Below are positions 1 through 44,545 of a stretch of DNA of 44,545 nucleotides, piece after piece. Positions within the stretch are counted from its first letter, which is position 1. The number at the start of each line of letters is the position of its first letter. Below the pieces are notes generated by a model, which saw only the letters and a program-made list of their open reading frames with translations, was not told the DNA's origin and did not search any database. The position numbers and the translations under genes are program-made. Origin of the DNA: a virus (taxonomy: Duplodnaviria; Heunggongvirae; Uroviricota; Caudoviricetes). The stretch lies in IMG/VR virus record IMGVR_UViG_2737471829_000005, one strand, 5' to 3'.

Positions 1-22
1 GATTTATAGAATTATATAACCA
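1..22 (+). promoter_or_regulatory. Copy of the recurrent AT-rich motif (ATAGAATTATATAA-like) just upstream of the ParA-like gene; cut by the window start
   Basis: gatttatagaattatataacc matches the core motif seen upstream of several other operons. Confidence 0.35.
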
Positions 23-27
23 AACAC

Positions 28-696
28 ATGGAGTCTCGACAAATGACTATCTCTGTAGGTATTTTCAACGGAAAAGGCGGCGTAACCAAATCAACAATTG
101 CCCGTGCTTTAGCAGTTGCTTATGCAAAGGCTGGCTGGAATGTATGCCTGATCGATATGGATGTGCTTAACGGAACGGTAACGCGTTGGGTACAACGCAG
201 AATGGCCAACAATATCGAACCAGCAATCGCGGCGCAGCCGTGCGGCACACCATCACAAGTCCAGAAAATCATCGAATCAGAAATATACGACCTGGTTATC
301 GTCGATGGCGGTGCCTACGCATCTGAATCAGTACCGAAGCTCTCTGAATTTCTGGATATGGTTATTTTGCCAACCAGATTCTCTACCGATGACCTGGAAA
401 CCACCGTTAACACAGCTCACGGCATCGTTAAAAAGGGTGTACCAATCAAGAAAATTTGCATGGTGTTTTCCGGCGCGGCTGAAAACGAAGCTGACTATAT
501 TGAAGCCCAAGAGTACCTGGCTAATACGCCATACTTTGTTGTCGATAAGTACATTCCCCACAAGCCAGCTCTGAGCAAAGCTCAGGATAAGGGCTTAAGC
601 CTCATTGAGTGCTCATACGTTGCGCCACGCAAAAAGGCAGACGACGTTATTCAGGGGATTATCAACCAGCTTGAGGCTCTGACTACTGCCGCGTAA
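28..696 (+). CDS. ParA/ParF-like partition ATPase; true start may be the Met at 43
   Basis: 222-aa ORF with deviant Walker A GIFNGKGGVTKST; followed by a small RHH-like ORF; GGAG lies 9 nt before the Met at 43. Confidence 0.8.
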   Translation: MESRQMTISVGIFNGKGGVTKSTIARALAVAYAKAGWNVCLIDMDVLNGTVTRWVQRRMANNIEPAIAAQPCGTPSQVQKIIESEIYDLVIVDGGAYASESVPKLSEFLDMVILPTRFSTDDLETTVNTAHGIVKKGVPIKKICMVFSGAAENEADYIEAQEYLANTPYFVVDKYIPHKPALSKAQDKGLSLIECSYVAPRKKADDVIQGIINQLEALTTAA

Positions 697-728
697 TATA
701 TAATTATAGTTTTATAGATTTATATAAG
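696..728 (+). promoter_or_regulatory. AT-rich repeat block between the ParA-like and ParG-like genes; candidate operator or centromere-like site
   Basis: atatataattatag ... tatagatttatataag, two motif-like half sites. Confidence 0.3.
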
Positions 729-739
729 AGGGGATACAC

Positions 740-988
740 ATGGCCGCACCATCAAAACCACCAAAGAAGAACAGCAAAGGCGTACCGCCATCGATCGAAC
801 AACCGCAGGTTTTCGACCCGACTGAAACGCCAACCAGAACCAAATCAGGTGGGGCACAAATGGCGTTTAACGTCGACCCTGAATTTAAACGCGAGTACAA
901 AACGTTCGCCAGCTCAATGGATATGTCATTGAAAGAAGTGCTGACAAAATCTTTTGAGTTACTCAAGGCTCAATACAACCAGAAGTAA
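740..988 (+). CDS. ParG-like small ribbon-helix-helix DNA-binding protein, partner of the ParA-like ATPase
   Basis: 82-aa ORF directly after the ATPase; basic unstructured N-terminus and RHH-like C-terminus. Confidence 0.55.
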   Translation: MAAPSKPPKKNSKGVPPSIEQPQVFDPTETPTRTKSGGAQMAFNVDPEFKREYKTFASSMDMSLKEVLTKSFELLKAQYNQK

Positions 989-1208
989 GAGAAGGTGACG
1001 GCCTCCAGCGCCAACTGTTGGCCGTCGCGACACAACAAGGGGAATTTGTTATGTCCGAGCAACAATATACACGGTTACTAAAAACTCGTCTAATAGACCT
1101 CAAACGGCTGCAAGCTGGTCGCTTATTTGCCCTGCTATCCACCAGGCCAGAATGGGTACGTGAAGCAGTTCTGAAAGGCTTAATGCGCTCAAGCGTTTAA
1201 ATTCAACC

Positions 1209-1233
1209 ATAAAAAAGGCCCCCGAAGGGGCCT
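1209..1233 (-). terminator. Intrinsic terminator; functional on the minus strand, hairpin also present on plus
   Basis: aggcccc-cgaa-ggggcct, 7-bp GC stem, preceded by A6 on plus, giving a U-run on minus. Confidence 0.55.
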
Positions 1234-1238
1234 AATCG

Positions 1239-1361
1239 CTACTTGCTGCTAATGTTTATCGTCACATTCAGAGCGTTATCAGTAATCTTCCAACCCTCCC
1301 CATGTGGCGTAAACAAAGCTCCAGTAACAACGATAAAAATACACATGTAGTATTTTTTCAT
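1239..1361 (-). CDS. Small hydrophobic peptide of about 40 aa (MKKYYMCIFIVVTGALFT...); possible membrane peptide or type I toxin candidate
   Basis: Internal ATG at 1361 with AAGGG RBS 7 nt upstream; hydrophobic N-terminus; terminator directly downstream. Confidence 0.25.
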   Translation of the reverse strand: MKKYYMCIFIVVTGALFTPHGEGWKITDNALNVTINISSK

Positions 1362-1425
1362 TGTGTGGCCCTTACAGGCCGTTTCACGGCATCCCCACCG
1401 ACGAAAATGACGCGAGAGCAAGCAC

Positions 1426-1445
1426 GCTGTTTGTGCCTGCGTGGT
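1426..1445 (+). repeat. Direct repeat copy 1 (gctgtttgtgcctgcgtggt)
   Basis: 19/20 identical to 1676-1695, 250 bp apart, in an ORF-poor region. Confidence 0.5.
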
Positions 1446-1633
1446 ACGGCAAGTGGATAATCCTTTCCTGAAAGTCAGTGCCCGGGTGCGAATCGGCGGA
1501 AAGGCCCCAAGCCATATTACACGTCATACCCTTCATAATGAAGGAATAAAAAACGCTTTTATTACATAAGATTACACGTAAATAAGTTAAAAACCTTCAT
1601 TTTGCATGAGCTAATGAGCTAAATTTTTTTATA

Positions 1634-1651
1634 TGAATAGTGGACTATTCA
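1634..1651. promoter_or_regulatory. Perfect 8-bp inverted repeat tgaatagt-gg-actattca; operator-like
   Basis: Palindrome lying between the two direct repeats. Confidence 0.35.
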
Positions 1652-1675
1652 CCTCAGTTGGGTAAGAATGTAGTT

Positions 1676-1695
1676 GCTGTTTGTGCTTGCGTGGT
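1676..1695 (+). repeat. Direct repeat copy 2 (gctgtttgtgcttgcgtggt)
   Basis: 19/20 identical to 1426-1445. Confidence 0.5.
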
Positions 1696-1751
1696 TGTAT
1701 TAGTACAACGACGTTATGCTGAAAGGACCGCGAATCCGATCAGCACGAAAG

Positions 1752-1779
1752 AACCGTCCTCAAAAGGACGGTTTTTTTG
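1752..1779. terminator. Intrinsic terminator; strong on plus, overlaps the stop of the minus-strand HTH gene
   Basis: aaccgtcc-tcaaaa-ggacggtt followed by T7. Confidence 0.6.
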
Positions 1780-2332
1780 TTTCTCCCCCTTCCTTCCCAA
1801 ATGATTCAAATGTTAATGAGAGTGAATCATTTGATATGTTCGATTTAGCGCCGTTATCGACCCAATTTCTGTATGCTTCATCACAACAGTACCTTACAGC
1901 AGTTGGAGTAACAGGGATGCCGCCCCCAAATGAGAATCCCATTGAGCTAATGCTAACTCTTTCGAATGGCCTATTTCTCAATGCTTCAAACCCCTTGCTA
2001 TTAAAGTAACGCAGCATCAGAGGTAAAAGGTTATCCTCGTCCTGACTGATTGTTCCAGGGAAAAAGTAGTAACCATAACGGTTAAATTCGGGAATAAGAT
2101 TTTCTACCAATGACATGAAATTCACTGGAGTAATATTAAGGGCTGTGAAAGCACCAAAAAGGGCGTCAACTGTTAATACAGACTGCCCGTTCTCTATCTT
2201 TGTCCATGCGTTTGGTGTTTTTCCAGCAGCTTGAGCCAGCACTCCTTGATGCACACCTCTTTCTAGCCTAAGTTCTTTTATGATCATTAGGTGAATTGTT
2301 GAAAAACATGAGTTTTTTGACTGTTCAATCAT
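1760..2332 (-). CDS. HTH (XRE-like) transcriptional regulator with C-terminal domain, divergent from the antirepressor operon; candidate immunity repressor
   Basis: 190-aa ORF; N-terminal helix-turn-helix-like segment LAQAAGKTPNAWTKIENGQS. Confidence 0.55.
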   Translation of the reverse strand: MIEQSKNSCFSTIHLMIIKELRLERGVHQGVLAQAAGKTPNAWTKIENGQSVLTVDALFGAFTALNITPVNFMSLVENLIPEFNRYGYYFFPGTISQDEDNLLPLMLRYFNSKGFEALRNRPFERVSISSMGFSFGGGIPVTPTAVRYCCDEAYRNWVDNGAKSNISNDSLSLTFESFGKEGGETKKPSF

Positions 2333-2514
2333 TTTTTATCCCCATACTGAATTTTTTCTTGTTCCCGAATTTAACAAAATTCCACAACTCAGGACTGATT
2401 GATTCCTTACAGGAACTATACATTCCCATTTTTAGCATATCAAGAAAATTAAAAGCCCCGCATTCAAACCCACACTATGTGGTTGTCTCTGTTAAAATCC
2501 CGCCGTATTGACAT

Positions 2515-2616
2515 AAATGCGCCATTGGTGGACACTTTCCGAGCCGTAGCAAAATCTACGGCCGGGATTAGCCTCCTGAATAACACGATGGCGCATACCG
2601 CGTTAGCGGTTTTTTT
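2515..2616 (+). ncRNA. Candidate small regulatory RNA upstream of the small ORF and antirepressor (P1 c4-like position)
   Basis: TTGACA at 2508-2513; internal hairpin gccgtag...ctacggc; terminator-like hairpin plus T-run at 2597-2616; the -10 is poor. Confidence 0.25.
2597..2616 (+). terminator. Short intrinsic-terminator-like hairpin with T-run
   Basis: accgc-gtta-gcggt followed by T6. Confidence 0.4.
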
Positions 2617-2778
2617 ATGCGTAGAGCACTGTTACGCCCAAATTATGGTGGGTCGTACAGGGGCGGAGAAATCCGCGCCGGTTCGTCATTGTGTCCGGTA
2701 AGGCTAACCCTGTACGGCTCACCACCATTTGATTAGCCTCGAATGGCGGTGATAGTTCCATATACTGGAGATATCACA

Positions 2779-2970
2779 ATGACAAACCTACCCCATGACT
2801 ATTACGTCAACCTCGTAAAGATCCTTCTCAAGAAAGCCTCATACGCCGATAAATTCCGCCTGGCTGAAATCATCGAGCGCGAAGCTATGCGCATCGCCAG
2901 CAACGATAACGCTGTTTCTGACGCAAAAATCTCCCTCGTAACCAAAGTAGTTATGGGAGGTGCAAAATGA
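2779..2970 (+). CDS. Small protein (63 aa) overlapping the antirepressor start; Icd-like position
   Basis: ATG at 2779 with GGAG 8 nt upstream; stop overlaps the antirepressor ATG (ATGA). Confidence 0.45.
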   Translation: MTNLPHDYYVNLVKILLKKASYADKFRLAEIIEREAMRIASNDNAVSDAKISLVTKVVMGGAK

Positions 2971-4112
2971 AAACGCTTCCGACCGTTAACACCCTACAGC
3001 CTATCCTGCATAACCAAATCCCTGTCATTACTACCGAGTTACTAGCACAGCTTTACGGCACTGAGCCGGTGCGTATTCGCCAGAATCATCATGAGAACAA
3101 AGCACGTTTCGTTGAAGGGAAACACTTTTTCAAAGTTGTTGGTAATGACCTTAAAGAATTGCGGGTAGCTTTAAACTACTCTCAAAATCCAGTTTCACCT
3201 AAAGTCCGCTCCCTCATCCTCTGGACAGAACGCGGGGCTGCACGTCACGCTAAAATGCTCGAAACCGATCAGGCGTGGGATGTATTCGAACGGCTGGAAG
3301 ACTGCTACTTCAACCAGAACGCGCAAACGGCCGCGACCGTAACCGTCTCACCAAACAATGCTCGTGAGGTTGTCGATACGCTCAACGCTAAACCAATGTA
3401 TTACATTAAGGTGTGCAACAACGAGCCACTCACAACCTCAGCCGATGTTGCCCAGGCATTCAGCACCACAAACAATTCCATCGTTATGGCCATCGATGCG
3501 TTACGCATTCCTCGCACAGCTGCGGCGCGTCACTTCTTTAAAGAGCAACGACCGCTGGAAGGAAGCGACCGCGAAATAACAATCTATCGCATGACAAAAG
3601 ACGGATTTACCTTGCTCATGGAGAGCATCGACGGTCCAAGCGTGAAAGATATCAAGCTGGCCTACATTGAAGCCTTTAACGCTATCAGCAGCGTGTTAAA
3701 AACACAGTACGAGCGTGATCTGGCTAAACGACTATACCAGGAAAAAACGATTATCCGCGCGGCAACAGAGCATAATCGGCTATTAACGGAACCGAACTAC
3801 AGGAAGGAACTAATCAAGGAGTTTGACAAGGCAACAGGGAAAACCAAAGCGGCGCTAAGTCTGCCAGCAATGACTCAGGAAAATGTGATATCAGCCTTAC
3901 TTCTTGATCTGCTCAGAAACGCCAGAGCACTTATCAGCTTTGACGAAAACCTGAATCCTCAGCTCAAGCTACTACCACCGACAGGCAAAGTAGTCGACCA
4001 AGCAGATCACAACAGCATACTCAGCGTACTGGATGCAAACCTGCCAGCCAGGACACTACAGGATCTGATAAAAACATGTGCTGATAAGCTGGCACAGAAA
4101 AGCAGACCATAA
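2967..4112 (+). CDS. Phage antirepressor (Ant-like; ORF6N/AntA-type N-terminal domain)
   Basis: 381-aa ORF; N-terminal region typical of antirepressor/Rha-type proteins; terminator directly downstream. Confidence 0.65.
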   Translation: MKTLPTVNTLQPILHNQIPVITTELLAQLYGTEPVRIRQNHHENKARFVEGKHFFKVVGNDLKELRVALNYSQNPVSPKVRSLILWTERGAARHAKMLETDQAWDVFERLEDCYFNQNAQTAATVTVSPNNAREVVDTLNAKPMYYIKVCNNEPLTTSADVAQAFSTTNNSIVMAIDALRIPRTAAARHFFKEQRPLEGSDREITIYRMTKDGFTLLMESIDGPSVKDIKLAYIEAFNAISSVLKTQYERDLAKRLYQEKTIIRAATEHNRLLTEPNYRKELIKEFDKATGKTKAALSLPAMTQENVISALLLDLLRNARALISFDENLNPQLKLLPPTGKVVDQADHNSILSVLDANLPARTLQDLIKTCADKLAQKSRP

Positions 4113-4116
4113 CTAC

Positions 4117-4149
4117 AAGGGGCTACGGCCCCTTACTCTTTTCTCTCTT
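4117..4149 (+). terminator. Intrinsic terminator ending the antirepressor operon
   Basis: aaggggc-tacg-gcccctt followed by a T-rich tract. Confidence 0.6.
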
Positions 4150-4850
4150 ATCAACACCAGAGACTTTCTGAAAATCCTTTCGAATAGCGTCAGCGTCACG
4201 CGCCAAGCCCATACTCGAACGTGTCGCCATATGACGAAAATGATCAACTGCCGGAAACAAAGAAATAATGGACCCAATAGCTTGCAGCAAACTCGCTTTT
4301 CTACGCATCATAATTCCACCATAACCGATAGCCACCCTTCAGACACAACCCCCCCTCCCCCCATACAGGGTGCCCTTTACCGGAGTTCCGGCCCCTTCTC
4401 AAAAGCATCAAAAAAAGCTCGAGATCGAGTACCGGAACTCATGCCACCAGATAGCTCCACATCGTTTCCAATGCTTCGCCGCCGTGTGCGCCCTGTGGCC
4501 CACAATCATGCCATTGGTCGTCTGATATACCTTCTTCTGCTCATTGAGCACAGGCGAGTTGTCGCACTCCTGCCTTTCTCAGACTCGACTTAGTTTAGAT
4601 CGCTGTTCCTAGCTTGCGTCAGCACACTTTCCCCTTGTACGCATACCCGCGCGCCACTCCGCCCAAAAACACCGAACCCAACGAAGTGGCAAAGACAACG
4701 ACGCGAGCGTGAGTCTGAAACAGGCACCAGTAAAAAAGGGGTTGCAGGCGCAAAAAGATTTGATTATCTTTAGACGCAAGAAAGCCGCCCCAATCAAGAG
4801 GTGTCTTTTTAAATCCAGCCTACCAAGCAAGATTTAAATTTCAGACTGAA

Positions 4851-4880
4851 AACCGCCCGGCAAGGCGGTTTTTGTCTTTC
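4851..4880. terminator. Intrinsic terminator, likely bidirectional
   Basis: aaccgcc-cggcaa-ggcggtt with T-run on plus and A-run upstream. Confidence 0.6.
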
Positions 4881-4921
4881 TGGCGCTTACATTACACCAC
4901 CATAAAACGATCCGTAAAGGA

Positions 4922-5194
4922 TCATTTGATCCCTTGTTCCAATTCTGACGACACTTTAACCTTTTCCCATACAAGGGTTTGCAGCCTTAACAGAATCGCA
5001 TCTTTATCAAGGTGTGAAAGATCCTTAACCATATCGTCAAACGACAGAACGCGAATGGCCATCTCAATGACCCTCGGCGGCTCCCCCTTCTCATATCGCT
5101 TATATGTAGCCAACGATATCCCAAATTCTTCGGCGGCTCGCTCCTGCGTCCAGTTCATCCCACGACGCCATAATTTCAATTCATAACCCGTCAT
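4922..5194 (-). CDS. HTH (XRE-family) DNA-binding protein
   Basis: ATG at 5194 with AGGAGG RBS; HTH motif WTQERAAEEFGISLATYKRYEKG. Confidence 0.65.
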   Translation of the reverse strand: MTGYELKLWRRGMNWTQERAAEEFGISLATYKRYEKGEPPRVIEMAIRVLSFDDMVKDLSHLDKDAILLRLQTLVWEKVKVSSELEQGIK

Positions 5195-5222
5195 AGCATC
5201 CTCCTCGCACAATATTAACACT

Positions 5223-5249
5223 CGCAAAGTGTCAAAATGACACTTTGCG
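5223..5249. promoter_or_regulatory. Perfect 12-bp inverted repeat cgcaaagtgtca-aaa-tgacactttgcg between the 126-aa gene and the HTH gene; operator or attenuator hairpin
   Basis: Palindrome read directly; sits in a 60-bp intergenic gap. Confidence 0.5.
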
Positions 5250-5257
5250 CATTGTGT

Positions 5258-5638
5258 TTACTTAACGAGGAATAAAAATGGTTTATTGTTCGGCGGTGTA
5301 ATCGGGGCTGGCTCGCTTTTGCTCATGCGATCAGTGTACCAGGCCAGCTCCTTGTCAAAGTAAGCCTGATTAAAATAGGCCATGAATGTAGTTTCAAATC
5401 CATAACGACCGCTAATACGCAGCATCTGATTGCCGTTCTCTGTTTCCAGATATACCTGGGCACGTTCCTGATTCTCCTTCAGCCAGGTTAAAGCCTCATC
5501 GCACGAGGACACACGGTACTCATCATCGTAGCCGTCATCGATGCGGCTTGAAGAAGAACGGCAAATCACGCCAACAGAACCAGCCAGGATAGTTTGAATT
5601 TTAAGGAAAGCATTTTTGCGGATTTTAATCATGCTCAT
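5258..5638 (-). CDS. Hypothetical protein (126 aa), first gene behind conserved leader cassette A
   Basis: ORF begins directly at the conserved leader RBS. Confidence 0.5.
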   Translation of the reverse strand: MSMIKIRKNAFLKIQTILAGSVGVICRSSSSRIDDGYDDEYRVSSCDEALTWLKENQERAQVYLETENGNQMLRISGRYGFETTFMAYFNQAYFDKELAWYTDRMSKSEPAPITPPNNKPFLFLVK

Positions 5639-5755
5639 CGGGTTATCTCCGGTTTAACCAGGGCGGGTATCGCTCGGTTTCGGTTATAACCTTAGGAAAT
5701 TTTTTCCCACCTGTAAAGCATTTTTTATATAAATATATAATTATATAATTCTATG
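5639..5755 (-). repeat. Conserved promoter-leader cassette, copy A
   Basis: More than 90% identical to 37715-37823 and 44444-44545; holds the AT-rich motif, a TTTACA hexamer, GGGAAAAAATTTCC, and a leader ending at GGAG and ATG. Confidence 0.8.
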
Positions 5756-5801
5756 AGCACAAAAAAGCCCCTTTGCAACAGGGGCTTATCATTCGTTCTG
5801 A

Positions 5802-6101
5802 TCAGATGTTAAACGCTATTCGTTTTCCTGTGGGAAGCTCAACATCCAGGCTTAATTTGCCTCCCATAGCTTCAACGTAACGCTTTAATGTCGCCAGCTT
5901 TAAATCATTTCCGCGCTGCTCCAGCTTTGTTACTGCTGGCTGGCTTATACCCATCGCCTCAGCAACCTGTTTTTGTGATAACTGGAGTTCTTCACGCATC
6001 ATCTGCAAGCCGACCTCAAGAATCATCTCATCTGCCATTTCTTTAATTCGCGCCTGGCTTTCAGGTGAACGGCTGGCAATCACCTCATCTAATGTTCTCA
6101 T
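5802..6101 (-). CDS. HTH (XRE-type) antitoxin, HigA-like
   Basis: 99-aa ORF with HTH motif; overlaps the upstream toxin-like gene by 1 nt. Confidence 0.7.
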   Translation of the reverse strand: MRTLDEVIASRSPESQARIKEMADEMILEVGLQMMREELQLSQKQVAEAMGISQPAVTKLEQRGNDLKLATLKRYVEAMGGKLSLDVELPTGKRIAFNI

Positions 6102-6448
6102 TACTTGCTCTCCAGTGTGTTCAGATGTGCTGCAAACTCATCCTCAGCTATACGCACCAGTTTTTCATAAAACCGTTTATCGTTACTTTTGTCTCCTGCA
6201 CAAAGAACGATGGCCCGGCGAATCGGATCGAACGCATAAAAGGCTCTTATCGGACGGCCAGAAAACTGAACGCGAAGCTCTTTCATATTTTTGTACCGAG
6301 AACCTTTTACGGTATCGGCATATGGCCTGGGTAACTCAGGTCCGTAAACCTGTAGCTTTTTCAAATCAGCCAAAACCTTTTCCTGAAGAGCGTCTTCTTG
6401 CTCATTTAGCCAGTCGTCAAATCGCTGGCTAAAAAGTACCGTCCACAT
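6101..6448 (-). CDS. RelE/HigB-superfamily toxin (Gp49-like addiction-module killer)
   Basis: About 115 aa; toxin-first order with HTH antitoxin downstream; ATG at 6448 (the ORF track start at 6454 is TTG). Confidence 0.65.
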   Translation of the reverse strand: MWTVLFSQRFDDWLNEQEDALQEKVLADLKKLQVYGPELPRPYADTVKGSRYKNMKELRVQFSGRPIRAFYAFDPIRRAIVLCAGDKSNDKRFYEKLVRIAEDEFAAHLNTLESK

Positions 6449-6456
6449 GCTCAATC

Positions 6457-6503
6457 CTATAACCTGTAGTTTATATCACTAACTATATAACCTGTGGGTT
6501 ATA
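6457..6503. promoter_or_regulatory. Operator-like repeats upstream of the toxin-antitoxin operon
   Basis: Direct repeat tataacctgt twice plus inverted repeat tataacc-tgtg-ggttata, overlapping the toxin RBS region. Confidence 0.45.
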
Positions 6504-6692
6504 ATTTCAAGAAAAACGGGGCTATTTAACATAATGGACGTTATCGGCACCACCGGATCACCGTTCATTGTCGGATCTAAAAAATCCGCTCAAAAGATCA
6601 TGTTTTCCTGGGCGTTTTCCACCGTTTTTTATGTTGCTTATTTGTTAATGAAATCTCGTTTTCAGTTTCGCCTCATTTTCGACGCGAAAGCC

Positions 6693-6968
6693 CTATTTTT
6701 GTGACTTTACTCCTGGCATATGGACTTCCCAGCGACGAATCCCCATAGCTGCGCAAAAATCAGCCACATAATTCAATCCCGCCCATTCGCGGATACCACC
6801 ACGGGCTTTTTCAATGAAAACGGCAATCCCTTTTTTATTGAGAGCAAAAAGCCGCCAGCTTTTTGTCACTTCGTCCTGGGTAGCCACAACACAAGTGAAA
6901 GCTCCCATGCGATACAGGTCCAAGAACTCTTTGCGTGTTTTGCGTACAAGTTCCATAACAAACCTCAT
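6693..6968 (-). CDS. Hypothetical protein; start ambiguous (6968 or 6956)
   Basis: ORF coupled to the upstream gene. Confidence 0.4.
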   Translation of the reverse strand: MRFVMELVRKTRKEFLDLYRMGAFTCVVATQDEVTKSWRLFALNKKGIAVFIEKARGGIREWAGLNYVADFCAAMGIRRWEVHMPGVKSQK

Positions 6969-6979
6969 ATTTGCATGTT

Positions 6980-7267
6980 TCAAACATCTGTTTTGTTATC
7001 AATGAAGATTAACCCTAACCCAGCGAAGTAACACAGCAGCGCCCAGGCTGCATACGGAATGCTGGATCTGGATGTGGACTCCTTTAACATCTGCCAATTG
7101 CGAACATTGCGACTATCTTTTAAGCCAAGTTTTTTGGCCAACTGCGAGCCGCTCATTCCGGTCAGGCCAATGACTGCCCGAACTTCTCCACATGTAGGAG
7201 ACTCCCATTCATCCGCTTTTTTTAAACAAGCCGGATTCAACATTTTTAAAACAGTATCTTTATCCAT
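6980..7267 (-). CDS. Small HTH-like protein with C-terminal hydrophobic segment (candidate membrane-anchored DNA-binding protein)
   Basis: HTH-like LTGMSGSQLAKKLGL and C-terminal IPYAAWALLCYFAGLGLIF; ATG at 7267 with GGAGA RBS. Confidence 0.4.
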   Translation of the reverse strand: MDKDTVLKMLNPACLKKADEWESPTCGEVRAVIGLTGMSGSQLAKKLGLKDSRNVRNWQMLKESTSRSSIPYAAWALLCYFAGLGLIFIDNKTDV

Positions 7268-7513
7268 AACCATCTCCATTTATTATATCTACGATGGTAG
7301 GAAATCTTTTCCTATGTGGCAATAGAAATTTACTACATTGCGTATAAGACAACTTTTCTATGTCTAATAGGAAATGATGTTTCTTACGTTTTATCGCGTT
7401 CTGATGGCTACTGTGTGCGTATTTATCGACGTTTATTGATAAGGCTCCCCCTTCCTCCTGCAAAGCCCGGCCGTAGGCCTTATTTCGTCCTTATATAAAT
7501 TGATTTTGTATAG

Positions 7514-7625
7514 TTCGAAACGTGCCGTTTCGAAAAGGATGATCAGGCTACTCCATGCCTCCGGCAAGTGCCGGAGGAGGTATATTTGAGCGTAGCGACT
7601 CGAACCGGCGCGAGCTTTAGCTCGC
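7514..7625. other. Cluster of three palindromic hairpins downstream of repA
   Basis: ttcgaaacg-tgc-cgtttcgaa (7514-7534), cctccggc-aagt-gccggagg (7558-7577), gcgagct-tt-agctcgc (7610-7625). Confidence 0.4.
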
Positions 7626-7629
7626 TGCA

Positions 7630-36084: not shown

Positions 36085-36110
36085 AAATAAATAGCAAACA
36101 GGTATCTGCA

Positions 36111-36960: not shown

Positions 36961-36962
36961 GG

Positions 36963-37418
36963 TTATATCCTTCCATTCATTTTTATCGGATGACCAGATA
37001 GCCTTACGCAGTTGAGCTGTAAAGCTCCGGTATCAACTAACTGATCAACTAACATGATTAGAGCTTCATATTCAGACTGATAGCTAACCTGACGCATTCG
37101 ACCGCCGTTGTTCTCCAGAATGTCGGCCACCTTTGCAGCCAACTCGCTTAGACAGGAGAACTTATTCCCATATATCGTTTTATACTCGCGCTTCTGGCAT
37201 TCTTCGGCTTGCGGCTGGTTATCGAGAGCTATCAGCGACCGATGGCTATCAAGGAAGTCCACAATCTCATTCAGGCACTCTTTGGCTGCCTCATCGTGAC
37301 TTTTTCCGTATGCTTCATGGAGGACTTTCATCCTCATCATTGCTCCGTCACACATAATCGAAAGCGCGTAAAGCACATCACTAATCGCCATTTCTTTTTT
37401 GGTGCTTGTCGAAGGCAT
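36963..37418 (-). CDS. Hypothetical protein (151 aa)
   Basis: ATG at 37418 with AAGGAGA RBS, just after an internal terminator. Confidence 0.55.
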   Translation of the reverse strand: MPSTSTKKEMAISDVLYALSIMCDGAMMRMKVLHEAYGKSHDEAAKECLNEIVDFLDSHRSLIALDNQPQAEECQKREYKTIYGNKFSCLSELAAKVADILENNGGRMRQVSYQSEYEALIMLVDQLVDTGALQLNCVRLSGHPIKMNGRI

Positions 37419-37443
37419 CCCATGTTCTCCTTTGTCTGGATGT

Positions 37444-37469
37444 AAAAAAGCCCCGGCAATTGCCGAGGC
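37444..37469 (-). terminator. Intrinsic terminator inside operon B, between its first and second genes
   Basis: Minus-sense gcctcggc-aauu-gccggggc (8-bp stem) followed by U6. Confidence 0.6.
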
Positions 37470-37492
37470 TCGTTGTTCGTTATCGTTACGGT

Positions 37493-37714
37493 TTAATGCT
37501 CGCGTCGTCCGGCGACAACTTCGGATTTGTATTTCAGGTCGCCCAGCAAGAATTGCAGCTTAAGCATCTTTGCCGCCGTGTAGTTCCCTGATTCCACAAC
37601 CTCTTTCATGAGGTCATAAACGGCCGCTACATCATCAGCCAGGAACTCTTTGCGTTGCTGATCAGTCGCACGTTTGAAGGAAATACGCATTACTTTACGG
37701 TCTTGTTCTTTCAT
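37493..37714 (-). CDS. Hypothetical small protein (73 aa), first gene behind leader cassette B
   Basis: ATG directly at the conserved leader RBS. Confidence 0.55.
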   Translation of the reverse strand: MKEQDRKVMRISFKRATDQQRKEFLADDVAAVYDLMKEVVESGNYTAAKMLKLQFLLGDLKYKSEVVAGRREH

Positions 37715-37823
37715 CGGGTTATCTCCGGTTTAACCAGGGCGGGTATCGCTCGGTTTCGGGTATAACATTAGGAAATTTTTTCCCACCTGTAAAGTACTTT
37801 TTATATAAATATATAATTCTATG
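37715..37823 (-). repeat. Conserved promoter-leader cassette, copy B
   Basis: More than 90% identical to copies A and C. Confidence 0.8.
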
Positions 37824-38406
37824 ACACTTGCCAGAGAGCATCATGCAACTGGATACCTCCGTTGCACTGGTTGCCCCAGCCATGCCAGCCATCAGGTAAA
37901 TCACCGCGAGCAAACAGCTCAATACGAGGAACATCACCTAACAGTCTTACCAGCTTGTCACGAACCACATCAGGCTTCCGTGAATGTTCCAGACGAGGCG
38001 ATGTAAACGACTGAATGATCCCCGCATCAAGGCGGGTCGGCAGTTTGCCTTTTACCGCAAACAAGCAATCTTCACTGTTCGCACGAGTCATATGCCCCAT
38101 CCCCATCACCAGCTTATCTGGCTGTCGGCTACCACATTTGTTCCATGTGAAGCCCTTCATGGTCATCAGCCTGAACCCCCATGCTTTCACCACCAGCAAC
38201 GCTTCTTCTGGCTGAGTCGGAACCCACCACATGGCCAACAAACACGATTCAGGATTAGCAAGCTGCCAGACAGGAATACGAGCAATCTCCTCAGCTTTCA
38301 TCGTTGGATACTTAAAACCAGCTCCACGATTCCCATCCTTACACTTGTCTTTGTATTCCCAGGGGGGATCTGCATAAATCAGATTAAACAATGCAATTGC
38401 CTCCAT
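37819..38406 (-). CDS. MT-A70 family N6-adenine DNA methyltransferase
   Basis: 195 aa; DPPW catalytic motif near the N-terminus (LIYADPPWEY). Confidence 0.8.
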   Translation of the reverse strand: MEAIALFNLIYADPPWEYKDKCKDGNRGAGFKYPTMKAEEIARIPVWQLANPESCLLAMWWVPTQPEEALLVVKAWGFRLMTMKGFTWNKCGSRQPDKLVMGMGHMTRANSEDCLFAVKGKLPTRLDAGIIQSFTSPRLEHSRKPDVVRDKLVRLLGDVPRIELFARGDLPDGWHGWGNQCNGGIQLHDALWQVS

Positions 38407-38714: not shown

Positions 38715-38790
38715 TGGTGGCCCCTACCGGATTTGAACCGATGACCGTGCGATTATGAGTCGCCTGCTCTAACCACTAAGCTAAGGGGCC
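38715..38790 (-). tRNA. tRNA with CAU anticodon (Ile2-like or Met elongator; not distinguishable by eye)
   Basis: Reverse complement is GGCCCCTTAGCTTAGTGGTTAGAGCAGGCGACTCATAATCGCACGGTCATCGGTTCAAATCCGGTAGGGGCCACCA: 7-bp acceptor stem, D-arm, CTCATAA anticodon loop, GGTTCAAATCC T-arm, encoded CCA. Confidence 0.85.
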
Positions 38791-38882: not shown

Positions 38883-38929
38883 ATGGTTGATGCGTGCGCC
38901 CATGAGAAAAGCGCATAGAATGTTGTAAC

Positions 38930-38965
38930 TATATATTTATATAATTATAGAAATATATATTACTT
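38930..38965. promoter_or_regulatory. AT-rich recurrent motif copy; candidate promoter for the tRNA unit
   Basis: ctatatatttatataattatagaaatatatattac. Confidence 0.35.
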
Positions 38966-39169
38966 TCGGCAGTTGATTTCCCATGCCCTGTTATGAGCCA
39001 GAATATCTTTCTTTGTCTGGCGGTCCATAACATCGATATCGTGATCAGTCAGGTAGATGGGCTTTACCCAATCACAGGCGGTATCAACCACCACCGGGAC
39101 GCTTCCATGACTCCCGCAGCTCGCGATCAACATCGTCATCAGCCATATGGTTAACACTCTGCTGTACAT
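38960..39169 (-). CDS. Outer-membrane spanin (Rz1-like lipoprotein)
   Basis: 69 aa; signal peptide with lipobox LIASC; overlaps the 3' end of the Rz-like gene in another frame. Confidence 0.55.
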   Translation of the reverse strand: MYSRVLTIWLMTMLIASCGSHGSVPVVVDTACDWVKPIYLTDHDIDVMDRQTKKDILAHNRAWEINCRK

Positions 39170-39362
39170 TCCCCACCTCTTTTGTCACTTCTATACGCCG
39201 CTCCGCAGTGGCTTTTACGGCGGCTGCATTCTCATTAATGCGCTGCTTTTCAGCTTCATCTTCGGCCTTTTCTCGCCCCTTCATACGACCAAAACCAAAT
39301 GCGCCGAATGCAACCAATATAATGGTGCCGATAAATGACAAAACGGCTTTCAAACCAGTCAT
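39084..39362 (-). CDS. Inner-membrane spanin (Rz-like)
   Basis: 92 aa; N-terminal transmembrane segment then charged coiled region; follows the endolysin gene. Confidence 0.5.
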   Translation of the reverse strand: MTGLKAVLSFIGTIILVAFGAFGFGRMKGREKAEDEAEKQRINENAAAVKATAERRIEVTKEVGNVQQSVNHMADDDVDRELRESWKRPGGG

Positions 39363-39901
39363 ACCACCACTCGCTCTTTCATCCAGCCATAGACAAACGA
39401 CTCATTTGCTTCGCGTTTCTCCGCCAGGTCCAGATAACGGTCGCCCTGCGTACAGTTAAGGGCCGTCAGCATTACCCGTTCGCCGTCTTTTCCCCGATTC
39501 CCAAGATAAGCACGTAATGCCGCAATGGTGCGCGGGCCGATTCGCCCATCCACATCCATATCTGGATACAACTTCCCGCCACGGTTGAAAACATTCAGCC
39601 AACGTTGAAGCATCTTCGTAGCCACAGTCGGCCCCATGTTGACGCCCGTATCGCACATCTCAGCCGCAATATCAGGGGAAAATTGCGCCACCTGGTCAAA
39701 ACGAGGCCCATACCAATAATCACCTTCAAGAATCATCAGAGCCTGTTCTCGCGTCAGATCTCGCATATCGCCACGGTATCCGTGAGCACGGGCAGTATTC
39801 TGAGTGATGCCCCACATTGTTGGGCCTCCCTTGTCGTCAGGGTGATCAACATAACCACCCTCTTTTCCAAGAATGCTGTTAAAAATCTCATCTTTGGTCA
39901 T
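39359..39901 (-). CDS. Endolysin, GH108-type muramidase with C-terminal peptidoglycan-binding domain
   Basis: 180 aa; N-terminal GKEGGYVDHPDDKGGPTMWGIT block characteristic of GH108. Confidence 0.8.
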   Translation of the reverse strand: MTKDEIFNSILGKEGGYVDHPDDKGGPTMWGITQNTARAHGYRGDMRDLTREQALMILEGDYWYGPRFDQVAQFSPDIAAEMCDTGVNMGPTVATKMLQRWLNVFNRGGKLYPDMDVDGRIGPRTIAALRAYLGNRGKDGERVMLTALNCTQGDRYLDLAEKREANESFVYGWMKERVVV

Positions 39902-40220
39902 GATTAAATCCTAATGCGTCAACTATCCGCGCCAGATTGCCCCTGAAATACAGAACAACGATGCAGATAATCAGATTTCCAATAACCACCAGCCAGTGGG
40001 ATTCTTGATAAAGACCGAACACATAACGGAAGGGAACATTGGCGTATACAATGACGTAGATATAAGCCAGAAAGGAAACAAATGGACGATGCCTGGAGTC
40101 TTTCCGTCGATAAAGCATCAGCGCCATTACTATTACTGTGCAAAGCACCGCATTAATCAGTGCTGACGGGTCACTGCTTACCATTTGAACCCCCTCCACG
40201 TAAGCGGGAAAGCATTCCAA
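39888..40220 (-). CDS. Membrane protein of the lysis cassette (holin or antiholin candidate)
   Basis: About 100-110 aa with hydrophobic helices; between holin-like gene and endolysin. Confidence 0.5.
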   Translation of the reverse strand: MECFPAYVEGVQMVSSDPSALINAVLCTVIVMALMLYRRKDSRHRPFVSFLAYIYVIVYANVPFRYVFGLYQESHWLVVIGNLIICIVVLYFRGNLARIVDALGFNHDQR

Positions 40221-40566
40221 AGATGCTACCGAGATCCTGGCTGTTTACGAACGTGAGGATTTTAATGGTCAATGCAGCCACAATAACCGCACCAAGCGCA
40301 TCCAGAGGACGATCGTTGTAGCTGGTCCATTTGGCAAGAAATGAGCCAACTAACGGCGCTCCAATCACTCCAACAATGAACGATGTAAAGAAATAGCCAA
40401 TCAGCTTGAGACGGCTAATATTCACCGCTGTAGCAACATAGAAAACAGCGCCAGCAAATGCCCCGAATACAACGCCGTAATCAATACCAGTTGCAATACC
40501 AAAAACGCTGGCACCCATCAGGCCACCAGCAGCAACGGCCGTACCGGAAATTGGTTCTGCTGACAT
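40171..40566 (-). CDS. Holin-like membrane protein
   Basis: 131 aa; several Gly/Ala-rich transmembrane segments and charged C-terminus; first gene of the lysis cassette. Confidence 0.55.
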   Translation of the reverse strand: MSAEPISGTAVAAGGLMGASVFGIATGIDYGVVFGAFAGAVFYVATAVNISRLKLIGYFFTSFIVGVIGAPLVGSFLAKWTSYNDRPLDALGAVIVAALTIKILTFVNSQDLGSIFGMLSRLRGGGSNGKQ

Positions 40567-40952: not shown

Positions 40953-41396
40953 TTATATATGTTCACGACTGGACTTCCAGAATATCCACGCCAGATCAAC
41001 ATTCGGGTCCTGGTAATTCATCCCTTCGTTGGCACGAAGCAATAATGTTTCATGGTCTTTATCACCCGCATGAAACCTGACAAGTGCTTCGAACTTTTCG
41101 CGACCATCATCCGGCACTACCGGCTCTGGTTGGATAGTGACGTTGGCAAAGGCAGCACGCAAACCGGCCTTAATTTCCTCTACTTCATCAGCGCCTAGCG
41201 ATGAATCTGACAATGCGTGATGGAATGCGTAAGCCATGTCGTCGTTTACTGCAACCGGCTCGACTTCCAGCGCTGCCAGAGCAATTCGTGCCAGTTCTTC
41301 CGCTTCTTCTGCTGGCAGTACAACGTTGCTACCAGGTCCGTATGTTTCGCGCCACTGCTTGATTGTCAGCAGTCGCTCTTTGGTAATAGTGGTCAT
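40953..41396 (-). CDS. Hypothetical acidic protein (147 aa)
   Basis: ORF coupled to the upstream Cys-rich ORF. Confidence 0.5.
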   Translation of the reverse strand: MTTITKERLLTIKQWRETYGPGSNVVLPAEEAEELARIALAALEVEPVAVNDDMAYAFHHALSDSSLGADEVEEIKAGLRAAFANVTIQPEPVVPDDGREKFEALVRFHAGDKDHETLLLRANEGMNYQDPNVDLAWIFWKSSREHI

Positions 41397-41602
41397 TTGT
41401 TAATCCTCAAAACTTTATGCCCGGGCGCAAAAGCACGCGTTTTGTCTTTGCTTATTCGCCAGCCATCCTTGCGCGCCTCTTTTGCACAACCAGACCATGA
41501 CGTACCGATATACTCACCGAAGTCTGGCACTGGATATACACCTTCCGTACACTGGCGGCAGTCACAATAGAGATGCATGGTGTAACTTGCGGCAATAGCC
41601 AT
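41393..41602 (-). CDS. Small Cys-rich protein (69 aa; C-x-C-x2-C ... C), possible zinc-binding regulator
   Basis: ATG at 41602 with AAGGAGA RBS; motif YCDCRQC...SGC. Confidence 0.45.
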   Translation of the reverse strand: MAIAASYTMHLYCDCRQCTEGVYPVPDFGEYIGTSWSGCAKEARKDGWRISKDKTRAFAPGHKVLRINK

Positions 41603-42028
41603 ATCACTCTCCTTTAGTGCGCAAATGGTTTTTCCAGCGGTTTTGCGCCGCGCTGGGCTTTTTGCAAAAACCACAATCCATCATCCCGTAATGTTTCATT
41701 AACCCCATCCGTCGGTTGCTGAGTCTCACCCACTGCCAGACGCCAGGAGCGTTTCTACGAACTAACAGAATCTTTGCTTTACGGTTTTTCATCGTTTGCC
41801 CCCTGCTTTTCTGCCCTTAACACCATGCGAGAACCATCATCCAGCTCCCAATTGATTTCACCGCCTTCTGCCATGACAAGATGCCAAACGAGTTGTGCGG
41901 CCTCGTTGGTTACATCACGACCGCGATCATTGCCTACACGGCGTTTTGTTCCGTCACCTAAATCGCGCATTTTGGCCAACACGATGGTTTTTGATAGCGG
42001 TGAAAAACCAAGCTGTAGCCGTGCGGAA

Positions 42029-42649
42029 TTACTCACTGTTTGCCCCCTGAATACGTTTAAACTCAATTACCCATACCCACGGGTTAGATAGCCAGTTCTC
42101 TTGCCCGTAAATACCGCGCCAGATATCACCAAAACCAACGCGATAAACAGCTTCCGGCGGTGTAATCTTGTACGTCGCCGGAGATGCGCCTTCCGCTTTA
42201 GCATCTGCCTCGCTCATGTCATGCAGCCGTTCCACACGCACGTCGATTATTTCCAACAGAATGCGGCTGGCCCAACGTGGCATGTGAATTGACGGGGTCC
42301 AGCCCTCAGCTGGCTTGCTACTATCTGAATAATCAGCCTTGTAATCACACAGTTCAGAAGCCAGAGAGACACCATCTTTGATTTCCTGAATGACATCGTT
42401 ATCCAGCCAAAAAGCGTTGAATGTTTCACGTACCCATATGCGATCACCAACGTTACCGAACGGGCATAAACCATGTTCAGGTGCATCCATAACGTGGGTA
42501 TAGACACCATTGCGTTTCTTTGTCGGTTTACGGATAACCAGGCAGTTATCGGCCCTGACATTTTTTACAGGTCGACGAGTCTGCGTCTTCCTGCCTTCGA
42601 GGATGGCCCTGACCATCGCATCATTAAAAATCATGCCGCGCTCTTTCAT
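42029..42649 (-). CDS. Conserved phage protein with ASCH-like N-terminus (MIFNDAMVRAILEGRKTQTRR)
   Basis: ORF track 42029-42721; start moved to an internal Met to remove overlap with the upstream gene. Confidence 0.45.
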   Translation of the reverse strand: MKERGMIFNDAMVRAILEGRKTQTRRPVKNVRADNCLVIRKPTKKRNGVYTHVMDAPEHGLCPFGNVGDRIWVRETFNAFWLDNDVIQEIKDGVSLASELCDYKADYSDSSKPAEGWTPSIHMPRWASRILLEIIDVRVERLHDMSEADAKAEGASPATYKITPPEAVYRVGFGDIWRGIYGQENWLSNPWVWVIEFKRIQGANSE

Positions 42650-42654
42650 CTTGC

Positions 42655-43020
42655 TCACTTCAACTCCTCCCGACGACGTTCCTGAAGCTCTAGCATTGCG
42701 GCTCGGAAATCCTGCCACCATTCCTCATCTGCAACGGGGGTGTTCCGCTCCAGCACCTTGTCCGCATCGGCGATCAGGTTTGCCAGACTCTTGTCTGAAA
42801 TCTTCGTTACCGGAGTCGTTGGTTGCTCAACCTGCCCGATAGGTTTTATCGTGCTCAAAAGGAGGCGACGGCGGGAAAGTGGTGCCCCACAACGACGGCC
42901 ATCTTCCTTGCGATATGTTTCTTTCGGACCAACACACCAGGTTGTCGGCGTTTCGCGCAACTTCACTCTTTTCTCACCATCATTGGTAATGATTATTCCG
43001 GTATGGGTTTGGATGCTCAT
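42655..43020 (-). CDS. Hypothetical protein (121 aa)
   Basis: Coupled (ATGA overlap) to the upstream winged-helix gene. Confidence 0.5.
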   Translation of the reverse strand: MSIQTHTGIIITNDGEKRVKLRETPTTWCVGPKETYRKEDGRRCGAPLSRRRLLLSTIKPIGQVEQPTTPVTKISDKSLANLIADADKVLERNTPVADEEWWQDFRAAMLELQERRREELK

Positions 43021-43319
43021 GCCACAGCCCCTCTCAACGGCTTAACTTTGGCTAATAAGGTGTTAAACAACATGGAGTTAGGGTTCATGCCAAATGGCAA
43101 TTCCGGTTTAGCGGAGTAGTACAGGCAACCATTTATTTTCCTGGTTGTTATCTGTCCTTCGGCAACCATGCTTCTCAGTCTGCAACGCATAGAGTTCTGC
43201 GACACACCAATGTGCTCCGCGATTACGTCCACTTTTGAACATGGGTGATCGGTCAGGAAATTAATCACATCTTGGGGGTTAATAATTTTGCGTTTCATTG
43301 TCGAGGCGTCCTTATACAT
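43017..43319 (-). CDS. Winged-helix / HTH DNA-binding protein, first gene of an operon headed by the AT-rich motif
   Basis: 100 aa; DVIAEHIGVSQNSMRCRLRSMVAEGQI resembles MarR/GntR-like wHTH. Confidence 0.55.
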   Translation of the reverse strand: MYKDASTMKRKIINPQDVINFLTDHPCSKVDVIAEHIGVSQNSMRCRLRSMVAEGQITTRKINGCLYYSAKPELPFGMNPNSMLFNTLLAKVKPLRGAVA

Positions 43320-43345
43320 TTATATAAATATATAATTCTATATAC
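43319..43345 (-). promoter_or_regulatory. AT-rich recurrent motif copy upstream of the winged-helix operon
   Basis: tttatataaatatataattctatatac. Confidence 0.4.
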
Positions 43346-43365
43346 GGCGGGAGACATCCCGCCGT
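43344..43365. other. Perfect 9-bp stem hairpin downstream of the DUF3560-like gene; terminator candidate without a clean U-run
   Basis: acggcggga-gaca-tcccgccgt. Confidence 0.4.
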
Positions 43366-43375
43366 AGGCTTACTG

Positions 43376-44443
43376 TCAGGCTTTCAATAGCGATTCTTTC
43401 AGATATCGGGCATCAGCCAGGGCATTTGGAGTAATCTTGCGAACCCATGCATTACGGGTTGGACTCCACTTAAAGGCGCGTGATTTAAGCAGCGAACGAA
43501 TGTTTGCCTCTGGTTTGCCAGGGAAATAAAACAGGATGCGGTTATCCTCTGGATCTATCTCCATAGAAAAGTCGTCGTATTCTTCGCGCTGTGCTCCTGT
43601 TACAGACTTGACCGATTCAAGCTCCTTAATACGGCTCTGTAGTCGTTTGATCTCGGCGTTATTGTTGCTCAGTACGTATGAAGGGAATCCGATGCGCCCA
43701 CAGAAATCTCCGGCCAGTAACTCTTTGGCTTCGCTTTCTGTAAACCTGAGATCGATTAATGCAGAAAGCACCTGTAATTGGTCTTTTTTGTATTTGCGAA
43801 TGGCCTTATTTGCGGCCTTCATTTTGACGTGTGACTTCATGCAGCCTTGCAGCTTACGAAGCAACTTAAATAGCGCATCAGGATCATCAGACGAAATTCC
43901 ATTACGACCAACACCTGCGGCTTTGCTCTCGTAGTGTGATGCTTTACTTTCGCATTCAACAAACGCTTTTCTTAATAACGCATCAGCTTTAGACAAACGG
44001 CGGCGATGGCCTTTCGCGCTATAATGGTCAACTAAAATCGGCTGGCCTAACGGGATCACATCCAACAGGTCATGCGCTCGCTTATGCGCTACCGCACCTT
44101 CTTTTCTGGCTTTTTCTGCACGAGCAATATATCGGGCAAGACGCGCGTTCTGGCGTTCCTGATAGGTGTTTACGTAATCATCTCCGCGCTGCTGCTGTTC
44201 AAGCCATGCTTTGCGCAGATCTTCTGTTACGTCCACCAGCTCCGCAGGGATACAACCAGTTTGGGCTTCATAAGAGTAACCATCCTCATAGATACGCCCA
44301 TCATCTTCAACAAAGAAAAAGGTTTCGTGCTCATCGCTTTTGACCATACGACCATTAACATGGCGTAATAGGTAGCCAGTATCAGTGCTTAACAGGCTGT
44401 TAGGGTTGTTGATCCAGTCAGAAATAATTACTTGTTTATTCAT
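43376..44443 (-). CDS. DUF3560-like protein (355 aa), single gene behind leader cassette C
   Basis: LGQPILVDHYSAKGHRRRL and C-terminal FKWSPTRNAWVRK resemble conserved DUF3560 blocks as recalled. Confidence 0.55.
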   Translation of the reverse strand: MNKQVIISDWINNPNSLLSTDTGYLLRHVNGRMVKSDEHETFFFVEDDGRIYEDGYSYEAQTGCIPAELVDVTEDLRKAWLEQQQRGDDYVNTYQERQNARLARYIARAEKARKEGAVAHKRAHDLLDVIPLGQPILVDHYSAKGHRRRLSKADALLRKAFVECESKASHYESKAAGVGRNGISSDDPDALFKLLRKLQGCMKSHVKMKAANKAIRKYKKDQLQVLSALIDLRFTESEAKELLAGDFCGRIGFPSYVLSNNNAEIKRLQSRIKELESVKSVTGAQREEYDDFSMEIDPEDNRILFYFPGKPEANIRSLLKSRAFKWSPTRNAWVRKITPNALADARYLKESLLKA

Positions 44444-44545
44444 CAGATTTCTCCGGTTTAACCAGGGCGGGTATCGCTCGGTTTCGGTTATAACCTTAGG
44501 AAATTTTTTCCCACCTGTAAAGCACTTTTTATATAAATCTATAAT
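44444..44545 (-). repeat. Conserved promoter-leader cassette, copy C; its promoter end is cut by the window end
   Basis: More than 90% identical to copies A and B. Confidence 0.8.

Follow-up and report, generated by a model that had tools for sequence, protein, structure and literature searches.

A probable incomplete copy of a known temperate phage-plasmid of Escherichia, Salmonella and Yersinia in IMG/VR record IMGVR_UViG_2737471829_000005

The viral record IMGVR_UViG_2737471829_000005 is a stretch of 44,545 nucleotides, called here the window, in which a full set of genes for a tailed virion stands beside genes for plasmid maintenance. What kind of element is this, is it complete, and how did its head, its tail and its replicon come together? 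Modular exchange between phages is textbook knowledge, and a preliminary description, made from the letters of the window, suggested that a circular element had been cut open and that it was a mosaic of a lambda-like head, a P2/Mu-like tail and a plasmid-type replicon with an IncFII RepA. Our analysis leads elsewhere. The window very probably represents a known temperate myovirus that persists as a circular plasmid, without integration, in Escherichia, Salmonella and Yersinia, and of whose 48-49 kb it contains about 44.5.

Identity of the window and its relatives

The element is already known and not new: its sequence family occurs many times in GenBank, both as phages and as plasmids. By megablast, the Yersinia phage vB_YpM_39 (OR545053.1, a circular record of 49,027 bp) is collinear with the window at 96-99% identity, and its siblings vB_YpM_41 and vB_YpM_44 are likewise close; these near-identical genomes (OR545053-55 for the three) were deposited as phages, with Y. 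pestis EV76-CN as host. On the plasmid side, PLSDB holds more than 60 matching circular, non-mobilizable plasmids of 46-52 kb from E. coli, E. fergusonii and E. albertii. The structural region is carried by 72 of 5,426 complete E. coli genomes (about 1.3%), the plasmids being about 47-50 kb long, and 94 of the 95 matching places in these genomes lie on plasmids, the other one on a chromosome. One of them is a plasmid of 48,488 bp (NZ_CP009073.1) in ATCC 25922, a strain used for quality control. The window covers about 92% of a full element of about 48 kb, and differs from its relatives by small indels near 36.9-37.7 kb and 41.4-41.6 kb. A diverged sister with the same architecture, plasmid 3 of Salmonella Weltevreden (NZ_LN890526.1, 47,244 bp; RepA 84.7% identical, backbone 69-82% identical at the nucleotide level), indicates that the family reaches beyond Escherichia and Yersinia.

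These relatives bear out the phage-plasmid reading already proposed in the preliminary description. The window has genes for a full virion, for packaging and for lysis, together with RepA, ParA and a toxin-antitoxin pair for replication, partition and maintenance; its relatives in bacterial genomes are autonomous circular plasmids, and near-identical genomes were deposited as phages isolated on Y. pestis. The window lacks an integrase, and so do the four relatives with full annotation.

The family has left little trace in print. Our literature search found no paper that mentions vB_YpM_39 or describes the element, which is not named in the papers on enterotoxigenic E. coli, on intensive care units or on phage-plasmid review and typing that we consulted. 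It is not among ten typed phage-plasmid groups (PMC12977533), and from it the preprint on vB_EcoM-613R2 lists only a ParB gene. Phage HQ103, a plasmid-like Y. pestis phage considered as a possible relative, was rejected, being an unrelated peduovirus of 32 kb. The element is thus under-described though frequent in public databases. As a discovery the window matters little; its practical value is the context that it gives to a phage-plasmid present in about 1.3% of complete E. coli genomes, ATCC 25922 included.

Window ends and the virion module

Is the window whole? The preliminary description had placed both ends inside copies of one AT-rich motif and had taken this as consistent with a linearised circle. 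Related AT-rich motifs are indeed present at the two ends, but these do not close a circle: they do not overlap, the sequence formed by joining them was found neither in 62 related plasmids nor in collections of viral, genome and metagenome contigs, and about 3.8 kb separates the two corresponding points in all five relatives examined, the Salmonella plasmid included. The missing block (33212-37034 of OR545053.1, 27554-31383 in another relative) encodes a 218-amino-acid helix-turn-helix (HTH) protein and contains an early operon, transcribed divergently, whose products include a Ref nuclease and a DUF1064 protein. From its sequence, the 218-amino-acid protein is a candidate CI/LexA-like repressor. 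Palindromic AAAACCAC-N-GTGGT repeats lie between its gene and the early operon in the relatives, and this region is probably the main immunity switch. In the relatives the block is flanked by 31-nucleotide imperfect inverted repeats of the AT-rich motif.

The simplest reading of a window that stops at AT-rich arrays is an assembly break at repeats. Several other IMG/VR contigs of the family start or end near a 96-nucleotide cassette that is present in three copies (see below), which suggests such breaks. The window could instead be a natural deletion derivative without the CI-like repressor and the early genes, that is, a defective, plasmid-locked remnant or a virulent mutant. The inverted repeats that bound the block in the relatives, and the position of both break points within AT-rich arrays, would suit a deletion. 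On inspection, however, the joined ends are not the product of a simple deletion between short direct repeats, the end-to-end junction occurs in none of the collections searched, and the breaks of the other contigs near the cassette again point to assembly. We consider a deletion derivative improbable.

Turning to the virion genes, the head and packaging module (25189-32528, minus strand) was identified from Pfam and PHROG matches. In order of transcription it encodes a ParB-like nuclease, the small and large terminase subunits (TerS and TerL), a DUF6148 adaptor, the portal, a ClpP-type protease/scaffold, a decoration protein and an E-type major capsid protein. Compared with the lambda record, the head genes follow lambda order, as had been described, and most of the former assignments stand. 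TerL has both domains of gpA (PF05876 and PF20454), the portal is of the lambda family (PF05136), the major capsid protein is E-like (Phage_cap_E, PF03864), and the decoration protein matches phrog_49, its Pfam match (HDPD) being below the cutoff. The predicted protease is present and is of the ClpP type (CLP_protease, 111 bits); its Peptidase_S49 score of 24.2 bits falls below the cutoff of 24.9, so it is not the S49 type of lambda gpC. Two assignments are not confirmed. The small terminase, thought to be Nu1-like, matches phrog_57 only, with neither a Nu1 Pfam match nor tblastn similarity to lambda Nu1, and the gene at the position of gpW encodes the DUF6148/phrog_118 protein, which has no match to the gpW family or by tblastn; a PDB search with this protein as a gpW candidate gave nothing relevant. 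In direct tblastn comparison with lambda, TerL (28%) and the portal (27%) are the only matches.

The module also has a probable packaging site, which the preliminary description had passed over. The two ends of the linear record of Vibrio phage vB_VpaM_R20L (R20L) align to either side of window position 32942 or so, and the same position is base 1 of the three Yersinia phage records; that these meet at one point indicates a probable conserved cos site (32920-32975, minus strand), near which the gpA-type terminase probably cuts. Beyond it, and outside the tail cluster, lies a gene for a 239-amino-acid protein (33086-33805, minus strand) with a match to phrog_1924, a family whose annotation is minor tail protein. 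A ParB_N/Srx domain occurs in three proteins, one encoded next to the terminase genes (31938-32528), one fused to a methyltransferase (33822-35201) and one standing alone (35195-35818). None of these genes adjoins parA, and the proteins should not be read as partition ParB.

Four small head-completion or neck genes (23679-25188, minus strand; phrog_2581, 4089, 5541 and 2551/82) lie between head and tail genes, and homologues of two of them (24452-24796 and 23970-24455) occur in R20L and in Paenibacillus phage Lily. The tail is of the P2 family, as proposed, all of its named components being recognised by Pfam or PHROG. On the minus strand lie the sheath (22216-23679; recognised by phrog_23 only, E = 1e-95), the tube (21678-22199; PF04985), the chaperone pair E and E' (21238-21668; TAC_7, PF10109), the tape measure (18440-21232; PF10145) and the baseplate genes X-like, D, V, U, W/gp25, J and I (14139-18447; Pfam, with phrog_46 for the X-like gene). 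The gpU homologue between V and W is new to this analysis. By tblastn, the C-terminus of the sheath, the tube, D, V, J and I are 25-32% identical to their P2 counterparts. The order of the tail genes is sheath, tube, E/E', T, X, D, V, U, W, J, I, fibre (H) and assembly protein (G). The order had been described as that of P2/Mu; it is the order of Mu but not that of P2, where V-W-J-I-H-G precede FI-FII-E-T-U-D and X lies in the lysis cluster. The proposed E/E' frameshift can be read directly: a slippery T_TTT_TTG occupies 21396-21402, the zero frame of E runs CAG AAT TTT TTG CTC TCG TAG across the site, and the -1 frame stops just before the ATG of the tape measure gene. P2 has the same E/E' arrangement with a T_TTT_TTG frameshift.

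The tail ends in an invertible fibre segment (9694-12754), whose earlier prediction holds. Inverted repeats of 83 nucleotides (9694-9776 and 12672-12754, 95% complementary) bound it, beside a gene for a serine DNA invertase of the Gin/Cin/Hin type (9069-9623, minus strand; Pfam Resolvase and HTH_7). Between the repeats lie alternative fibre C-termini (9738-10658, plus strand; 11754-12672, minus strand) and fibre assembly genes (10661-11194, plus strand; 11223-11750, minus strand). In the current orientation the fibre gene extends over 11754-14108 on the minus strand, with Phage_fiber_2 repeats, and its product is 69% identical in amino acids to part of P2 gpH. At 94-95% nucleotide identity to the G segment of Mu/D108 and the C segment of P1/P7, this is a Gin/Cin-type segment through which host range can switch.

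Do a lambda head and a P2/Mu tail make a mosaic? Family names taken from lambda, P2 and IncFII do occur side by side, and the AT-rich motifs at both ends would fit a circle cut open at one of them. Yet the description is misleading, since single phages match the block from TerL to gpI in sequence and gene order from one end to the other. Among its 22 genes, tblastn matched 19 in R20L (25-66% amino acid identity) and 18 in Lily (29-55%), in the same order in both cases, and the closest relatives outside the family are the same phages for the capsid protein as for the sheath. Compared gene by gene with R20L and Lily, the run shows no step in divergence at the boundary between head and tail. This collinear homology without a step argues that, as far as sequence comparison goes, head and contractile tail are one old, vertically conserved morphogenetic module common to Proteobacteria and Firmicutes. 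Direct similarity to lambda (TerL and portal only, 27-28%) and to the P2 tail (25-32%) is low, RepA fails the strict incFII model (see below), and circularity at the window ends is contradicted by the lack of terminal overlap, by the absence of the junction from the 62 plasmids and three large collections, and by the 3.8 kb found in five of five relatives. A closed, recent three-way mosaic is accordingly very improbable. R20L and Lily carry integrases, and neither RepA nor ParA is present in them. Read from these sequences, the change that distinguishes the lineage is a plasmid maintenance module in place of an integration/lysogeny module.

Finally, an integrated prophage, or a chimera of prophage and plasmid made in assembly, is hardly credible as an account of the window: one chromosomal place among 95 speaks for it, and against it stand at least 58 independently closed plasmids of about 48 kb and three phage genomes, all collinear with the window, and the lack of an integrase in both the window and its complete relatives. 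The preliminary description had itself named chimeric assembly and chromosomal integration as findings that would overturn it; this collinearity, with 94 of 95 places on plasmids, argues that the window is neither.

Plasmid maintenance and regulation

The repA gene (7910-8758, minus strand) belongs to the IncFII_repA family of Pfam (PF02387, E = 1e-43) and passes NF040977 (232 bits against a cutoff of 70), so that the family assignment of the preliminary description stands; the strict model TIGR03474 is failed, at 78.8 bits against a cutoff of 446.9. In a tblastn search of 72,556 plasmids, identities of at least 95% occur only inside the element family. Beyond the family and its Salmonella sister, among the best 40 of 235 records, matches reach at most 37%, to plasmids of the pKPC_UVA01 type and to Buchnera pLeu plasmids, and no classical F plasmid is among the best 40 of the 235 RepA records at 1e-10. 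Given the failure of the strict model and the distance of these relatives, "IncFII" is here a superfamily label without bearing on incompatibility group. Translation of repA probably starts at Met44, giving 282 amino acids (the listed open reading frame (ORF), of 325 amino acids, extends to 8887); PGAP calls a RepA of 277 amino acids in the Salmonella relative.

Upstream of repA lies a structured leader (8765-8890; folding energy -69.5 kcal/mol, z = -10.9). On the antisense strand, these 130 or so nucleotides form a 20-bp hairpin followed by a terminator-type hairpin, and could thus form a CopA-like countertranscript. A Thr-leader match in an Rfam e-value scan of the region is spurious and reflects this hairpin-plus-terminator shape. 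A consensus scan places a candidate promoter-like site for repA at 9072-9045; over positions 1-9700 the scan found fewer sites than in shuffled sequence and is otherwise uninformative. The window has a single perfect DnaA box (7760-7768). It stands some 140 bp downstream of repA within a stretch of 68-76% A+T, and this region, read from sequence, is the likely origin (about 7650-7850, minus strand). In the prophage state, then, a distant RepA of the IncFII superfamily would fire the origin some 140 bp downstream of its gene, and RepA synthesis would probably be controlled via the structured leader or a countertranscript.

Partition was assigned in the preliminary description to a ParA/ParG pair. 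A small Walker-type ATPase of 222 amino acids is indeed encoded at 28-696 (plus strand; Pfam CbiA/ParA/MipZ), with a match to NF041546 ParA_partition below the cutoff and a weak PDB match to ParF of TP228, and it is followed by a small ORF of 82 codons (740-988, plus strand). This partner, by contrast, is ParG-like by position and predicted architecture only: a single-sequence model predicts for it a disordered N-terminal tail and, with confidence, two helices, as a ParG-like protein might have. ParA and its small partner would segregate plasmid copies. The toxin-antitoxin pair of the preliminary description is present as a Gp49/HigB-like toxin (PF05973; 6101-6454) and an HTH_3 antitoxin (5802-6101), both on the minus strand; the pair is of type II, and its toxin is annotated in relatives as RelE/ParE-family or HigB2. 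A further locus, formerly overlooked, is a full-length match to the ryfA/timP RNA (1211-1509, minus strand; Rfam RF00126, 134.6 bits) with a hydrophobic ORF of 40 amino acids inside it (1239-1361), at the position expected for the TimP toxin (PMC7667032). The RNA match and the position of the ORF suggest a candidate type I toxin locus on the plasmid. Both the HigB-like pair and the ryfA/timP-like locus would penalise plasmid loss.

Not all of the results favour an incomplete copy of a plasmid-borne temperate phage, and some weigh against it. Evidence for the plasmid state comes from assemblies, and that for infectivity from the GenBank entries of the Yersinia phages. Both ends of the window fall exactly at AT-rich arrays, a coincidence that leaves some room for a real deletion variant. 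The S24 peptidase match of the 218-amino-acid HTH protein is below threshold (18.4 bits against a Pfam cutoff of 23.3), family, PDB and fold searches gave no homology support for the 82-amino-acid partner of ParA, and Rfam CopA has no match at the repA region.

Control of the lytic cycle appears to involve a small antirepressor locus. On the plus strand, an isrK-like RNA (2543-2616; Rfam RF01394, 68 bits) and a C4 antisense RNA (2641-2729; RF01695, 70.8 bits), both above the gathering score and both absent from the preliminary description, precede an icd-like ORF of 63 amino acids (2779-2970), which overlaps by ATGA an antirepressor gene (2967-4112) whose product has ORF6N and Rha domains (Pfam; PHROG anti-repressor families). 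A 190-amino-acid HTH regulator (1760-2332, minus strand; HTH_3/HTH_31) is divergent from this operon. The C4 loop GTCATTGTG (2685-2693) is complementary over 9 nucleotides to CACAATGAC (2775-2783), which spans the icd-like ATG at 2779, and a second stretch of C4, AGGCTAA (7 nucleotides), is complementary to TTAGCCT on either side of C4. The layout matches that of the c4-icd-ant circuit of P1/P7 immI. With C4, a coupled small ORF and an antirepressor, the sequence has the P1 immI-type arrangement, and its regulation may be presumed similar: C4 would mask the ribosome-binding region of the icd-like ORF, to which translation of the antirepressor would be coupled. The lysis-lysogeny decision would then rest on this circuit and on the CI/LexA-like repressor encoded in the absent 3.8 kb block.

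The AT-rich motif seen at the window ends recurs inside. TATAAATCTATAAT, with at most two mismatches, has 13 copies in the window against 0.70 expected. Twelve of these occupy eight intergenic loci (3-16, 703-724, 5728-5749, 36619-36632, 37804-37817, 38928-38957, 43311-43336 and 44532-44545), overlapping matches being often offset by 8 bp, and the remaining copy (14461-14474) lies inside a gene. The arrays stand before parA, between parA and its partner gene (703-724), and directly upstream of each copy of the 96-nucleotide cassette. The first of them (1-27, plus strand) is the cut remnant of an operator/promoter array upstream of parA, of which relatives have further upstream copies. The cassette consists of a promoter, TTTACA-N17-TAAGGT, a shared 5' leader and a Shine-Dalgarno sequence, with an AT-rich array upstream; its three copies are 96-98% identical and each drives a different minus-strand operon. 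A repeat search places them at 5646-5741 (supported by sequence context), 37722-37817 and 44450-44545, all on the minus strand, the 3' end of the window falling inside the AT-rich array of the third. In the Salmonella relative the cassette occupies the corresponding three positions with 86.7% identity, while the backbone is 69-82% identical; motif and cassette are better conserved than the coding backbone in this diverged relative.

It is conceivable, though doubtful, that the AT-rich arrays form one regulon in which a single DNA-binding protein ties plasmid partition to several phage operons. The binder might be the ParG-like partner, in a role like that of the omega protein of pSM19035, or else a repressor like C1 of P1. 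The arrays and the thrice-repeated cassette are in our view the one lead worth following, and the cassette would offer a model for the coordination of plasmid and phage functions.

The remaining genes, all on the minus strand, include those that the cassettes drive. Copy 1 precedes an operon for a protein of 126 amino acids and an HTH protein of 101 amino acids (4922-5638). Accessory and DNA-modification genes (33086-38406) encode the phrog_1924 protein, the ParB_N-methyltransferase fusion, a ParB/Srx protein, a DUF2513 protein and an MT-A70 methyltransferase; cassette copy 2 is situated among them. A tRNA-Met (CAT) (38715-38790; ARAGORN, Rfam), conserved in vB_YpM_39, separates the methyltransferase gene from the lysis genes. 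The lysis cassette (39084-40566) comprises two holins, a GH108 endolysin and an ORF of 92 amino acids, as PGAP annotates it in near-identical relatives. The genes that follow cassette copy 3 (40953-44443) include one for a DUF3560 protein (43376-44443), the C-terminal part of which matches a PHROG annotated as primase.

Comparison with known systems

The nearest known systems are the Yersinia phages vB_YpM_39/41/44 and the E. coli plasmids of about 47-50 kb, which have the same gene order, RepA, ParA, toxin-antitoxin, invertible segment and cassettes as the window, and differ in keeping the 3.8 kb block with the CI-like and early genes. R20L and Lily (Lilyvirus) share the TerL-gpI block, and the termini of R20L are homologous to the probable cos site; unlike the window, these phages have tyrosine or serine integrases and lack both the RepA/ParA backbone and the Mu-type invertible segment. 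The element may be taken as a compact model for the replacement of an integrase module by a plasmid backbone on a conserved virion module.

As a replicon, it resembles the classical IncFII plasmids R1/R100 in the Pfam family of its RepA, in a likely origin with a DnaA box downstream of repA, and in a structured leader with a possible countertranscript. It differs from them in that its RepA fails TIGR03474 and Rfam detects no CopA in its leader; the single leader frame read by eye showed no tap-like peptide, and CopB was not looked for.

Likeness to P2 is confined to the tail families FI, FII, E/E', T, U, D, V, W, J, I and X, at 25-32% identity; the order of the genes is another, the head and terminase of P2 are unrelated, and P2 integrates. 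With Mu, the element shares the tail order (sheath, tube, chaperone, tape measure, hub, spike, wedge, fibre) and an end in a G-segment-like region with an invertase. There is almost no sequence similarity to Mu outside the fibre, the window has no transposase, and the head genes are unrelated.

P1 and P7 offer the closest parallel in the plasmid way of life, albeit with clear differences. The element is about half their genome size and has a different head and tail; its RepA is of the PF02387 family, in contrast to the P1 RepA with iterons; it has a small ParA in place of ParA/ParB-parS, and no Cre/lox was seen in it. Like P1 and P7, it is a plasmid prophage with a C4 RNA upstream of an icd-like ORF and an antirepressor, it has a Cin-type invertible fibre segment (94.6% nucleotide identity over 2.2 kb), and it carries a recurrent operator-like motif dispersed over intergenic regions. 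It may thereby serve as a model of P1-type antirepressor control outside P1.

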